Shown piece by piece: positions 26,257 through 28,938 of a stretch of DNA of 32,000 nt. The first letter of the stretch is position 1. Each line of letters opens with the position of its first letter. The position numbers and the translations under genes were made by a program. Source of the stretch: Flavobacterium agricola (lineage in GTDB: Bacteria; Bacteroidota; Bacteroidia; Flavobacteriales; Flavobacteriaceae); NCBI RefSeq assembly GCF_025919725.1, contig NZ_CP081495.1, positions 391,166-423,165 of the forward strand. Direction: 5' to 3'. Under the pieces are notes generated by a model. The model had not been told where the DNA came from. It made no database searches and saw only the letters and a program-made list of their open reading frames with translations.

Positions 26257-27729
26257 ATGAAAGCACACACAACAAAAATCATCGGAGAAGGTCTAACATA
26301 CGATGATGTTCTTTTAATTCCAAATTATTCCGAAGTACTTCCACGCGAAGTTTCCACACAAACTAAATTCTCAAAAAACATTACTTTAAACGTTCCTATT
26401 GTTTCTGCAGCAATGGATACGGTAACAGAAAGTGCAATGGCAATTGCTATGGCGCAAGAAGGTGGTATTGGTGTTTTACATAAAAATATGACAATTGAGC
26501 AGCAAGCTGCAGAAGTTAGAAAAGTAAAACGTGCCGAAGCAGGAATGATTATGGATCCGGTAACTTTAAGTTTACACCATAAAGTAGGTGATGCAAAAAA
26601 TGCAATGAAAGAACATAGCATCGGCGGAATTCCTGTTGTAGACGAAAATAATATTTTAAAAGGGATCGTTACCAATCGTGATTTACGATTCGAAAAAAAT
26701 AACGAACGTGCCATAACAGAAGTTATGACTACGCAAAATTTGGTTACTGCGCCACAAGGAACAACTTTAGCGCAAGCCGAAGAAATTCTTCAAAAAAATA
26801 AAATCGAAAAATTACCAGTAATTGATGCAAACAACAAATTAGTTGGCTTAATTACGTTTCGTGACATTACTAAAATCACACAAAAACCAAACGCCAACAA
26901 AGATTCATTTGGTAGATTACGTGTAGCTGCAGCATTGGGTGTAACAGCTGATGCGGTAGAACGTGCCGAAGCTTTGGTTAACGCTGGTGTTGATGCAGTA
27001 ATTATTGATACGGCTCACGGACATACAAAAGGCGTGGTAGATGTACTTAAAAAAGTAAAAGCTGCTTTTCCTAGTTTAGATGTGGTGGTTGGTAATATTG
27101 CTACGCCAGAAGCTGCCTTGTATTTAGCAGAAAGTGGAGCTGATGCGGTAAAAGTAGGAATAGGACCAGGTTCTATTTGTACTACTCGCGTTGTTGCTGG
27201 GGTTGGTTTTCCTCAGTTTTCTGCAGTTTTAGAAGTTGCAGCAGCTTTAAAAGGTACTGGAGTTCCTGTAATTGCTGATGGTGGTGTACGTTATACCGGT
27301 GATATTCCTAAAGCGATTGCTGCCGGAGCAGATTCTGTTATGTTAGGATCTATGTTAGCAGGAACAAAAGAATCGCCAGGTGAGACTATTATTTACGAAG
27401 GACGTAAATTTAAATCTTATCGCGGGATGGGTTCTGTAGAAGCGATGCAACACGGTTCTAAAGACAGATATTTTCAAGATGTTGAAGATGATGTTAAAAA
27501 ATTGGTTCCAGAAGGAATTGTTGGTCGCGTAGCATATAAAGGCGAATTAAACGAATCTATGTTACAATTTATAGGTGGTTTACGTGCCGGAATGGGGTAT
27601 TGCGGTTCTGCATCTATTCAAGAACTACAAGAAAAAGGACGATTTGTTCGCATTACAACAAGTGGAATTAACGAATCTCACCCTCATGATGTTACTATAA
27701 CAAAAGAAGCACCAAACTATTCAAGATAA
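26257..27729 (+). CDS. guaB: IMP dehydrogenase
   Basis: Canonical IMPDH sequence: [10 protein letters not shown], tandem CBS insert, catalytic loop [11 protein letters not shown] and [11 protein letters not shown]. Confidence 0.95.
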
Positions 27730-27730
27730 T

Positions 27731-27761
27731 AAAAAAGCTACCCAAGGGTAGCTTTTTTTTT
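27731..27761 (+). terminator. guaB Rho-independent terminator
   Basis: A6, then agctacc-caag-ggtagct, then T9. Confidence 0.75.
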
Positions 27762-27782
27762 CTTTCTTTCTTTCTTTCTTTC
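27759..27782. repeat. Tetranucleotide microsatellite (TTTC)6
   Basis: Read directly from the sequence. The paralogous copy at 28921-28928 has only 2 units. Confidence 0.95.
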
Positions 27783-27803
27783 TGTTTTTGTATACCTAAT
27801 AAC

Positions 27804-28655
27804 CTAAATAAATAAATAAATAAATGTATTTGCTGAAAGATACTCATCTTCTGTATTTACACTAATAGGAGTGCCTGAGCCGCCGGTTGAAACAGAAAAC
27901 GTATGTGTATGAGCTCCAGCGCTATTAATTGTAAATGCAGAGTTAACTAGGCTAGTAGTTGCCCAAGTTTGCCCACCAGATGAAAATCCTGAAGAATTCA
28001 CAGCTCCAGTAGTATAATTATTGTTAGTTGTAGTGTGTGTATGAGCACCGTTAGAACTTGTAGTACCTGACATGGTAAAATTAGGAATATTTGCTCTGGT
28101 TATACTTATAGATTTCGCAGTACTATTGCCTCCTACTGTATTTACTTCTTTACTACTAACTTGTTTAATTACTCTTCCGTTAGCGTTTGGTAAATTAGTT
28201 GTAAAACCAAGTAAGTTGGCATTGTTTTTTGATACATTAGTTAAAGTACTTATTTGGCGTCCATCAAGCAAATACCAACCGTCGTGATCTATTTTTAAAG
28301 CACTATATTTAATGTCACCTAAATTAAATTTAGAACTTGTTTGTGTTAGTTTTTGCCAAACATTTCCATCAAAAAAATAATAGCCATTTTCGTTAATATG
28401 AATTGCTTTTCCTATTTGTTCTCCACTTAGAGCATCAGATACATAAACTAATGTTGATGTACTAATATTTTCCATATTTTGTGCTCTTTCTCTATCTACT
28501 CTAGGAATTAAAATACCATCAACTTGACTGCTTGATCCAGTTGGATTTATTGCTTGAATATCTAAAGTTGCTTTTGGGGTTGTAGTTACTATACCCACCT
28601 GAGAATACGTTGTTAAACTAAATAAGCAACAACATAAAATAATCATTTTTTTCAT
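27804..28655 (-). CDS. Secreted phage-tail-collar-domain (MdpB-like) protein with a Bacteroidetes fibre-type N-terminal module
   Basis: Signal peptide, then VGIVTTTPKATLDI...DGILIPRV...GYYFFDGNVWQKL. The tail-collar-like core is GDIKYSALKIDHDGWYLLDGRQIS...LLGFTTNLPNANGR, followed by two GAHTHT motifs. The C-terminal FIYLFI is encoded by the (AAAT)5 tract. Confidence 0.7.
   Translation of the reverse strand: MKKMIILCCCLFSLTTYSQVGIVTTTPKATLDIQAINPTGSSSQVDGILIPRVDRERAQNMENISTSTLVYVSDALSGEQIGKAIHINENGYYFFDGNVWQKLTQTSSKFNLGDIKYSALKIDHDGWYLLDGRQISTLTNVSKNNANLLGFTTNLPNANGRVIKQVSSKEVNTVGGNSTAKSISITRANIPNFTMSGTTSSNGAHTHTTTNNNYTTGAVNSSGFSSGGQTWATTSLVNSAFTINSAGAHTHTFSVSTGGSGTPISVNTEDEYLSANTFIYLFI
27806..27825. 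repeat. Tetranucleotide microsatellite (AAAT)5
   Basis: Read directly from the sequence. It encodes the last 6 residues and overlaps the stop codon of the minus-strand tail-collar-like gene. Confidence 0.95.
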
Positions 28656-28804
28656 AAAATCATTTTTTTATGTACAACGGCATTTCGTTTTTTTTATTAT
28701 GTTATATGCTGTATTGTTTTTTTAAGTTTTTTTTAAATATTTATTAAATAAATAACGTTTTTTGAATTTTGTTAGGATTACTTTTTTACCAGCTATAAGA
28801 AAAT

Positions 28805-28888
28805 GTCCGCATTACAACAAGCGGAATTAAAGAATCTCACCCTCATGATGTTACTATAACAAAAGAAGCACCAAATTATTCAAGATAA
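28805..28888 (+). pseudogene. Orphan guaB 3'-terminal fragment (27 codons plus stop); no start and no upstream guaB sequence
   Basis: Translates to [27 protein letters not shown]-stop in the guaB frame, compared with ...GINES... in the intact gene. Confidence 0.85.
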
Positions 28889-28938
28889 TAAAAAAGCTAC
28901 CCAAGGGTAGCTTTTTTTAATTTCTTTCTGTTTTTGTA
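28805..28938 (+). repeat. Direct repeat copy B of the guaB 3' end and terminator
   Basis: See copy A. It contains a second terminator hairpin (28890-28918) and overlaps the last 14 codons of the EamA-family gene. Confidence 0.9.

Follow-up and report, generated by a model that had tools for sequence, protein, structure and literature searches.

We analyzed a 32-kb stretch of Flavobacterium agricola DNA (hereafter the window), in which a pair of long repeats lies near the 3′ end of guaB. The repeats are two copies of one block, and they enclose a segment of about 1 kb, here called X, that encodes one intact gene only, together with the 5′ region of that gene. An intact EamA-family gene lies beyond the second copy. 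The features of the locus are as follows.

26233–27729, forward strand: guaB (IMP dehydrogenase), intact; Pfam IMPDH (7e-161) plus CBS.
27625–27792: copy 1 of the block, certain from 27645 and probable from 27625 (alignments); single-copy in the relatives L082 and L083.
27731–27758: hairpin 1, bidirectional and terminator-like (A6, 12-bp stem, T-run), from a terminator scan of both strands.
27755–27783: (TTTC)n simple repeat, from TRF and from alignment with the empty sites; none in the relatives.
27793–28792 (or to 28803 without the 11-nt extension of the block): inserted segment X, missing from the relatives' empty sites.
27804–28655, reverse strand: cargo gene K5I29_02040, 283 aa, with a signal peptide and PF26696 (PTL_trimer).
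27805–27825: (AAAT)5 simple repeat that covers the stop codon of the cargo gene and the final codons before it (TRF).
28656–28792, reverse strand: AT-rich 5′ region of the cargo gene, about 140 nt, presumed from its sequence to be the promoter.
28793–28938: copy 2 of the block, certain from 28804 (alignments), with the polarity of changes judged from L082 and L083.
28890–28917: hairpin 2, bidirectional and terminator-like, identical to hairpin 1 (terminator scan, RNA fold).
28897–29802, reverse strand: EamA/DMT-family transporter gene, intact; Pfam EamA (2.5e-30).

The repeat is far above the chance level. The block at 27645–27792 recurs at 28804–28938, at the offset of 1159 nt that the sequence-only reading had reported, and a repeat search (97% identity between 27645–27759 and 28804–28918, with a spacing of 1159 nt), a MAFFT alignment and a self-blastn (127 nt, 94.5%, E 2e-50) all recovered the repeat. 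The count of 103/107 identities ahead of the T tract in that reading was also correct, with mismatches at 27648, 27663, 27672, and 27717. Each copy holds the last 27 codons of guaB, the stop codon, and a 12-bp-stem hairpin with A and T runs on its sides. Past the hairpin, the sole difference between the copies is the length of the simple repeats, with T9 and about 6–7 TTTC units in copy 1 and T7-AA and two TTTC units in copy 2. Both copies then share CTGTTTTTGTA, up to a sharp right edge at 27792|27793 and 28938|28939.

The left edge of the block was probably placed too far to the right at first. The last 11 nt of the supposedly unique segment (28793–28803, CTATAAGAAAA) match guaB at 27625–27635 (CTACAAGAAAA) in 10 of 11 positions, a match for which shuffling gave p about 0.001–0.007, and the block therefore probably began at 27625/28793, 20 nt earlier than first placed. 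Copy 2 has since probably lost 9 nt (AGGACGATT) and gained a CAA to TAA change. With this start, the insert would span 27793–28792 (1000 bp) rather than 27793–28804. The 1012-bp unique segment described from the sequence does carry just one gene with its 5′ region, as claimed, but its last 11 nt probably belong to the block. The left joint of the insert lacks microhomology (p 0.83), and the 10/11 match at the right end is more plausibly part of the block itself. Overall, the duplicated block measures 135–168 bp, is 97% identical outside the simple repeats, and spans −86/−106 to +63 relative to the guaB stop codon, so that the last 27–34 codons of guaB fall within copy 1. The guaB start used here is that of the longest ORF; in relatives, the start corresponds to its residue 9.

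An empty site, in which X is absent and the block is single-copy, is present in two metagenomic relatives, L083 and L082. Their guaB products are 93–95% identical to that of the window at the amino acid level, and their EamA proteins are 81% (L082) and 76% (L083) identical. The flanking synteny HMGL-guaB / EamA-p58-Smr is kept between the window and these relatives. The single-copy block (L083, 7011–6874; L082, 2302–2172) aligns to both copies in the window, and the duplicated block therefore covers the 3′ ends of both genes, including the C-terminal codons of EamA (YKNRKK...) and its stop codon, which lies within the hairpin. In L083, guaB and EamA are convergent and 32 bp apart, and 7 bp separate the gene calls in L082; the two stop codons lie a few nucleotides apart within one bidirectional hairpin. 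The ancestral state that the sequence-only reading had put forward, guaB convergent with an EamA-family gene and sharing one terminator, is thus seen directly in L083 and L082, as are the empty sites that it suggested looking for. An earlier doubt about this state, raised because none of 80 guaB loci on genome contigs has an EamA gene within 5 kb, was overturned by these closer metagenomic relatives, which were reached through the EamA protein. The nearest relatives are about 83–84% identical to the window in guaB at the nucleotide level, which makes the timing of the event and the polarity of substitutions approximate.

Copy 1 consists of the working 3′ end of guaB with its stop codon, hairpin 1, and a redundant EamA-tail relic, expanded into the T/TTTC simple repeat. 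Copy 2 consists of a decaying relic of the guaB 3′ end, hairpin 2, and the working last ~14 codons of EamA. With L082 and L083 as the outgroup, the 9-nt deletion is placed in the guaB relic of copy 2 along with four of the five substitutions, which are the CAA to TAA change, an Asn to Lys change, and two silent changes. Copy 1 has one silent change, and the simple-repeat expansion is found only in its EamA-tail relic. The two hairpins are identical. Each copy keeps one apparently working and one decaying half, and this pattern of differences is what a duplication in situ, followed by decay of the redundant halves, would predict. Four of the five substitutions fall at third codon positions of guaB. 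We also considered that the copies might have diverged as working genes in two lineages; this was rejected, as the third-position argument lost its significance once the block was extended by 11 nt (3/4 relic changes at third positions, p about 0.11). The extension added a first-position nonsense change and the 9-nt deletion, so that in situ decay may suffice, and the third-position bias of the substitutions is probably not fully explained by it.

Hairpin 1 is a predicted terminator (RNA fold −17.7 kcal/mol, z about −4.7 to −4.8) that now serves guaB on the forward strand and the inserted gene on the reverse strand, since the stop codon of the cargo gene lies 11 nt from the junction. Hairpin 2, likewise a predicted terminator, serves EamA, whose stop codon (28897–28899) sits within its stem. 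No Rfam family was found in the window. No canonical promoter motif was found in 28656–28792, where a sigma-70-type scan did not score above shuffled sequences.

The cargo protein is full length and is predicted to be secreted, with an N-terminal signal peptide. It matches P0001, a one-member cluster, at 100% identity, and its next homologue is 46% identical. The C-terminus aligns with the family end NTFIYLGE, except that ...FIYLGE of the family reads ...FIYLFI here. It is a member of PF26696 (PTL_trimer), and its sequence is phage-tail-fibre-like, with weak tail and tail-fibre matches (PHROG tail protein, 3e-7; phage long tail fibre profile, E 0.007; a sub-threshold Phage_fiber repeat). The earlier label "tail-collar-like" was only loosely right: no match to Collar (PF07484) appeared even at E up to 10. 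PF26696 relatives elsewhere occur in chromosomal triplets and are not prophage genes. An AF2 model of the protein is partly confident (pLDDT 66), and Foldseek found nothing significant for it in the PDB (best match 6OV6, a Bizionia protein, E 0.22). Exact-protein look-ups with the cargo and EamA proteins of the window returned no record.

As the sequence-only reading had stated, the locus lacks mobility genes: a domain search of all ORFs of at least 90 aa in the 32-kb window gave no match to an integrase, recombinase or transposase. A repeat search revealed no terminal inverted repeats at the ends of X, and the G+C content of X resembles that of the flanks. The block was also rightly judged too long for a transposon target-site duplication. 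With no transposase, no inverted repeats and a duplication of at least 135 bp versus 2–14 bp, the structure does not qualify as a DNA transposon or IS. No DNA match to X was found in plasmids, a search of phage DNA returned matches to guaB contamination only, and metagenome contigs scanned with an exact 31-nt pattern from the guaB-end/hairpin sequence gave no match.

The site 3′ of guaB is highly variable across Flavobacterium. Orphan guaB 3′ fragments lie 3′ of guaB in two other Flavobacterium genomes, L021 and L026, and such fragments were found at 2/80 other Flavobacteriaceae loci versus none at some 800 gene ends elsewhere in these 886 kb, which hints that the highly conserved end of guaB is a recurrent recombination anchor. 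The boundaries and intervening genes of the L021 and L026 relics differ from those of the window. The relics start at about −190 and end past the terminator or at the stop codon, the right end of the window block lies at +63, and these differing boundaries argue that there is no common att core. In L026, a 13/15-nt microhomology links the orphan fragment with the first 15 codons of an ABC-transporter gene, and illegitimate joints therefore do form at guaB 3′ ends in the genus. The similarity of the left flank of the L021 relic to the 5′ end of the ABC-transporter gene is not significant (p 0.075–0.2), and the guaB of L026 shows no clear mosaic, with L022 as the best match along most of the gene. 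Repeats adjoining guaB in L014 and L030 were set aside as REP/RAYT-type elements, a separate phenomenon. No integrase family recurs in the first three ORFs 3′ of guaB at the 80 Flavobacteriaceae loci, among the best 25 families listed; this listing is complete for families with hits at two or more loci, and an integrase at a single locus may have been missed.

We favor the reading, to which we give a probability of about 0.6, that the locus records a one-off horizontal gene insertion, as a scar of the type known as insertion with long target duplication. On this reading, it belongs to a class of recombination scar already described, not to a new type of mobile element, and no site-specific integration is involved. 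In the ancestor, guaB and EamA would have been convergent, with stop codons about 8 nt apart and a common bidirectional hairpin inside the coding tail of EamA. About 1.0 kb of foreign DNA, with one complete tail-fibre-like gene and its own 5′ region, would then have joined in, with a copy of the resident block of ~150–170 bp, hairpin and both gene ends included, left on each side in the same event. We infer that the joining was most likely a recombinase-independent illegitimate event. Captured foreign DNA may have closed the gap between two offset breaks, or between nascent ends, of sister chromosomes where a fork had stalled, or there may have been a replication template switch into the foreign DNA and from there back to an upstream position. 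The event may have survived because a plain insertion would have truncated guaB or EamA or removed the terminator; by virtue of the duplication, the guaB end was kept in copy 1 and the EamA end in copy 2, and a separate bidirectional terminator is available to each convergent pair (guaB and the new gene, the relic and EamA). Decay of the redundant halves would then have followed, the guaB relic of copy 2 by nonsense, missense, and 9-nt deletion and the EamA relic of copy 1 by TTTC expansion. Homologous recombination between the copies could permit loss of the unit or its passage between siblings. The event is indicated to be old and fixed, as the cargo has diverged so far from its next homologue and the relic has decayed by roughly 4%.

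The sequence-only reading had compared the structure to attL/attR or to the integration of a Campbell-type circle. What stands of this comparison is an insertion bracketed by a long duplication. The two mechanisms themselves are not supported: the block is the resident target with both gene ends, X is unmatched elsewhere, and there is no common att core. In the Campbell version, a small circle carrying the cargo and the block would have entered by one RecA-dependent crossover to give block-X-block. One crossover would give precisely this topology, RecA can work with a homology of about 150 bp, such a circle could be released from the structure as it now stands, and the mostly third-position differences would fit a block imported from a sibling lineage. 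This leaves the origin of the circle unexplained, as it must already have held a lineage-specific two-gene block and so needed an earlier illegitimate event; moreover, the identical hairpins and complementary decay fit duplication in situ without an imported block, and no plasmid or other sequence resembling X was found. We regard such a crossover as unlikely, while the sequence alone cannot separate an illegitimate joining from a single crossover of a block-carrying circle. An attL/attR remnant or a non-autonomous element, with an attP that supplied a replacement guaB 3′ end and with mobilization in trans (CIME-like) or subsequent deletion of the integrase, appears improbable. Direct repeats do flank the cargo, the gene 3′ end and terminator are kept in both copies, the cargo is phage-tail-fibre-like, and orphan guaB 3′ fragments also occur in L021 and L026. 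There is also the precedent of phage 21 and e14 in E. coli icd, which enter the gene at its 3′ end and whose attP supplies a replacement 3′ end; there, as here, working and orphan gene 3′ ends bracket foreign DNA and the differences are mostly silent. Those elements have an integrase, a fixed core, and a recurrent position, but none of these is seen at the window, whose block also takes in the tail of the neighboring EamA gene. The lack of a recombinase in 32 kb and of a recurring integrase family at the 80 guaB loci (among the best 25 listed), the boundaries that differ between the window, L021, and L026, the chromosomal rather than prophage setting of PF26696 members, and the L026 relic junction, a microhomology joint with another gene, all count against site-specific entry, as does the failure to find X or an attP elsewhere (phages, plasmids, a nearest protein at 46%, and the exact-pattern metagenome scan). 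CIMEs carry true att sites recognized by the integrase of a related ICE, and Neisseria minimal mobile elements have no flanking duplication. The window resembles both in having integrase-less cargo between conserved genes or att-like repeats, but differs from CIMEs in lacking true att sites and from the Neisseria elements in having a flanking duplication.

The structure could also have arisen in two events, with a spontaneous tandem duplication of ~150 bp at the guaB/EamA junction and a later foreign insertion exactly at the joint. Short tandem duplications are common, and the simple-repeat and hairpin context could promote slippage, but the scheme needs an unstable intermediate as well as an insertion precisely at the joint, and neither relative (L082, L083) has the tandem intermediate, so that we consider it very improbable. 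That the repeat is an assembly artefact, through a mis-join or a duplicated contig end, has a chance close to negligible: one genome only carries the structure and repeats are classic sites of mis-assembly, yet the copies are set apart by 4–5 substitutions, a 9-nt indel, and the lengths of two simple repeats, each junction runs on into an intact gene, and the record is a single 2.71-Mb contig.

A more far-reaching proposal is that, across Flavobacteriaceae, integrase-less cassettes of one gene preferentially land at the guaB 3′ end and terminator, that they enter with a long duplication by a dedicated process, and that the 1.16-kb unit still excises as a circle and moves between cells. Such a process might begin with breakage or a stalled fork at the bidirectional terminator hairpin, or might depend on a trans-acting enzyme that recognizes the hairpin. 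We hold this proposal to be quite doubtful; if true, it would mean that insertion with long target duplication also takes in ordinary cargo, beyond restriction-modification genes, and would supply its mechanism.

[quoted passage not shown] In the published cases, a related genome shows the empty site with a single copy of the repeat, mobility genes are missing, and the repeats often span a stop codon, so that the target gene stays intact (PMC2853133). By the criteria of Furuta 2010, the window has repeats of more than 30 bp, a single-copy empty site, no mobility gene, and an insert of 1.0 kb (below 20 kb). It is therefore like the published cases in its long repeats, empty site, lack of integrase or transposase, and intact target genes. 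It is unlike them in its secreted fibre-like cargo, its host among the Flavobacteriia, and a block that spans two convergent gene ends and their common terminator. The published cases carry restriction-modification, orphan methyltransferase or mcrA genes, and DNA breakage made by the cargo was proposed as the cause (PMC2853133). Restriction-modification cargo was a screening criterion of the published survey; the cargo here has no nuclease or methylase domain.

Homology-facilitated illegitimate recombination and sequential displacement are described from T6SS effector-immunity arrays of V. cholerae (PMC5361080) and from conjugation in E. coli (HFIR, PMC3240628). The window resembles these in having foreign DNA beside a conserved anchor gene and orphan old gene ends, and L026 in its microhomology joint. 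Unlike HFIR, the block in the window looks like a resident target duplicated in place and not like an imported homologous arm. Flavobacterium is not established as naturally competent.

Overall, the locus offers a clean and fully resolved example of how one foreign gene can be added between abutting convergent genes with neither damaged; empty sites in relatives, the two junctions, and complementary decay in the two copies are all documented for it. On the preferred reading of a one-off insertion, it suggests that insertion with long target duplication is not limited to restriction-modification cargo, which would weaken the case for cargo-encoded DNA breakage as a requirement of the process.

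The region 27300–29300 of the window was read directly, and a repeat search of the window recovered a two-copy direct repeat (27645–27759 and 28804–28918) with 97% identity and a spacing of 1159 nt. MAFFT alignment and self-blastn (127 nt, 94.5%, E = 2e-50) confirmed it, in agreement with the repeat of the guaB end and terminator described in the sequence-only reading, and our recount likewise gave 103 identities in 107 positions, with mismatches at 27648, 27663, 27672, and 27717. A simple assembly duplication is excluded by the differences between the copies. The arrangement is as follows:

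27625 or 27645 to 27792, left copy of the duplicated block (copy 1)
27793 to 28792 or 28803, depending on the definition, inserted segment (X)
27804–28655 (−), cargo gene, the sole ORF between the copies
28793 or 28804 to 28938, right copy of the block (copy 2)
28897–29802, EamA transporter gene

Common to both copies are the last 27 guaB codons, the TAA stop codon, and a 12-bp-stem hairpin between A6 and a T run. This hairpin is identical in the two copies, was predicted as a terminator on both strands by a terminator scan, and has a folding energy of about −18 kcal/mol (z about −4.7). On its 3′ side, copy 1 carries T9 and about 6–7 TTTC units and copy 2 carries T7-AA and two units; CTGTTTTTGTA follows the simple repeat in both, and then comes a sharp boundary (27792/27793 and 28938/28939). 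At the left junction, (AAAT)5 at 27805–27825 and about (TTTC)7 at 27755–27783 lie within 50 nt of one another. The unique segment had been placed at 27793–28804. It does carry only the cargo gene and its 5′ region, but its final 11 nt (28793–28803, CTATAAGAAAA) equal guaB 27625–27635 at 10 of 11 positions, a significant match by shuffling (p = 0.0008 anchored to the end of X, 0.007 unanchored). The block therefore probably started at 27625, in which case copy 2 would later have lost AGGACGATT and undergone a CAA-to-TAA change.

Our guaB scan, with one genome per species, covered 80 Flavobacteriaceae loci (guaB 80–89% aa identity), in which the neighborhood downstream of guaB was very variable and an EamA homolog was never present within 5 kb of guaB (0/80). 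With the EamA protein as the query, closer relatives were found, in metagenomes only, at 81 and 76% identity. In one of these loci, L083, EamA (6001–6894) is convergent with guaB (6927–8399, opposite strand) with 32 bp between them, and in the other, L082, EamA (1305–2210) is followed 7 bp on by the 3′ part of guaB. The guaB genes of these contigs are 93–95% identical to that of the window, and the HMGL-guaB and EamA-small ORF-Smr synteny is kept. L083 7011–6874 and L082 2302–2172 each align at the DNA level to both window copies, and the DNA alignment revealed no counterpart of X at either guaB-EamA site. The search for empty sites in relatives proposed from sequence alone thus yielded two, and the ancestral state postulated there, guaB convergent with EamA, is directly observed.

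Other differences from these relatives were noted nearby. A 116-aa gene, located between EamA and the small ORF that precedes Smr in L082, L083, and a further relative's locus, L081, is absent in the window (29803–29954), where no flanking repeat was found. At 30731–31948 (−), the window encodes a 405-aa protein with five YadA-head repeats (PF05658, 5e-32) and without an autotransporter anchor; since L081 and L083 have an unrelated 179–180-aa gene at the equivalent position, this is a second lineage-specific fiber-like gene, 2 kb from the cargo gene. Both the EamA transporter and the cargo protein have their nearest named homologs in Weeksellaceae, not Flavobacterium (EamA, 65% in Empedobacter and about 54% in Chryseobacterium; cargo, about 45% in Chryseobacterium). 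The best guaB matches in the species set are from Flavobacterium, and the placement of F. agricola may be worth re-examination. The window also encodes, at 18897–20615 (+), a 572-aa protein with a NERD nuclease-related domain and an SF1-helicase-like AAA domain, which may be defense-related.

At the empty sites, the EamA frame passes through the hairpin (...YKNRKK.KKAT.G-stop), with the EamA stop codon inside the hairpin stem; in the window, about 8 nt separate the stop codon of guaB from that of EamA. The block therefore holds the convergent guaB and EamA 3′ ends together with the one bidirectional terminator that they share. When the copy differences were polarized with L082 and L083 as outgroups, four of five substitutions (one nonsense, one Asn to Lys, and two silent) and the deletion fell in the redundant guaB relic of copy 2, one silent change fell in the working guaB end of copy 1, and the TTTC expansion was confined to the redundant EamA tail of copy 1. 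Each copy thus retains a functional half next to a decaying one, the pattern predicted by duplication of a resident target followed by neutral decay. Divergence of the copies as working genes in two lineages, with third-position-only differences, was also considered, and its significance disappeared once the 11-nt extension was counted.

The cargo gene, preceded by about 140 nt of AT-rich sequence, encodes a 283-aa protein with a signal peptide, identical (100%) to hypothetical protein K5I29_02040 of F. agricola (2.71-Mb contig); in a set of 5.8 billion proteins, the next-best homolog reaches only 46% identity. It belongs to PF26696 (PTL_trimer in gene tables), which in Chryseobacterium-like contigs occurs as three tandem paralogs in an ordinary chromosomal context. 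Searches against local Pfam, NCBIfam, and PDB sequences gave no significant match, a relaxed domain search gave a sub-threshold Phage_fiber repeat alone, and a PDB fold search with the AlphaFold model (pLDDT 66, confident in part only) returned nothing significant. PHROGs matches were to tail and tail-fiber families (3e-7 to 5e-5), the family profile weakly matched a phage long tail fiber (E = 0.007), and tblastn aligned about 90 residues at 35% identity to three phage records (two Vibrio and one Aeromonas). On this evidence, phage-tail-fiber-like secreted protein is a fair label; of the earlier description as secreted and tail-collar-like, secretion and the tail likeness hold, while the collar identity is not demonstrated. 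The protein is full length, as its C-terminus aligns to the family end (...NTFIYLGE), with the (AAAT)5 repeat turning ...FIYLGE into ...FIYLFI in the last two residues and the stop codon lying 11 nt from the junction.

A decayed or trans-mobilized site-specific element, with the repeats as att sites, is not supported. As noted in the sequence-only reading, integrase, recombinase, and transposase domains are absent, here from every ORF of at least 90 aa in the 32-kb window; X has no terminal inverted repeats, no compositional anomaly, and no DNA relatives in phage and plasmid collections, and a scan of metagenome contigs for exact matches to the guaB end and hairpin found nothing. When all 81 sources were searched with a profile built from the final 300 nt of guaB, exactly three (L021, L026, and the window) had an orphan guaB 3′ fragment downstream of an intact guaB, and self-comparison (886 kb) found no such relic at any other gene end. 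In L026 (MAG Flavobacterium sp. LE19-8.1G), the relic (8023–8213; 190 nt, 85% identical, frameshifted, ending at the stop codon) is separated from guaB by a T9SS-secreted RCC1-repeat gene, and on its left it is joined to the initial 15 codons of an ABC-transporter gene (7993–8213), the joint lying within a 13/15-nt microhomology. In L022, its closest relative, the ABC-transporter gene lies 12 nt beyond guaB. The most plausible reading of L026 is a scar left by illegitimate recombination combined with homologous recombination on one side. In L021 (Flavobacterium pokkalii, 6573–7355), a small membrane-protein gene separates guaB from the relic (7220–7355), which has an internal deletion of ~117 nt and includes a terminator copy. 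The L021 and L026 relics share their starting point in guaB (about −190), a possible hotspot. Overall, the three cases have different boundaries and different intervening genes, and there is thus no common att core. Among the families listed for the first three ORFs downstream of guaB at the 80 loci (fully shown only for those at two or more loci), no integrase family recurs.

Repeats adjoining guaB in two other relatives, L014 and L030, were rejected as related cases, being unrelated REP/RAYT-type elements. L014 (1972–2720) has a RAYT (IS200-like, REP-associated) transposase gene directly after the guaB stop codon, with GAGACGCGC...GCGCGTCT palindromes on either side. L030 has a 63-nt repeat (6710–6772 and 8454–8516; 97% identical) around a pair of small genes some 240 nt beyond guaB, which looks like a dispersed Bacteroidota repeat and not a target duplication. 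Separately, at locus L008 two successive genes, unrelated to each other, each have a 116-nt intergenic sequence after their stop codon (1776–1889 and 3270–3383; 88% identical), an arrangement resembling cassettes.

The anatomy matches insertion with long target duplication (Nobusato 2000; Furuta 2010), a known category of insertion with direct repeats 30 to about 420 bp long that often span the stop codon and so leave the target gene intact, an empty site in a relative, and no mobility genes (PMC2853133). In the published cases the cargo consists of restriction-modification genes, which were proposed to cause the insertion through DNA breakage (PMC2853133); here it is an ordinary secreted protein. 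A circle bearing the block may instead have entered by a Campbell-type crossover, the other route suggested from sequence alone. Such a crossover would be the likely path of any later loss or spread of the unit, but it leaves the origin unexplained. We favor a recombinase-independent illegitimate event, in which captured foreign DNA may have bridged offset ends on sister chromosomes, or a template switch may have run into foreign DNA and then back upstream. Selection would have retained only the outcome in which guaB and EamA, each with one terminator, were preserved. The insertion is probably old, because the relic has decayed by about 4% and the cargo protein is so distant from its next homolog.
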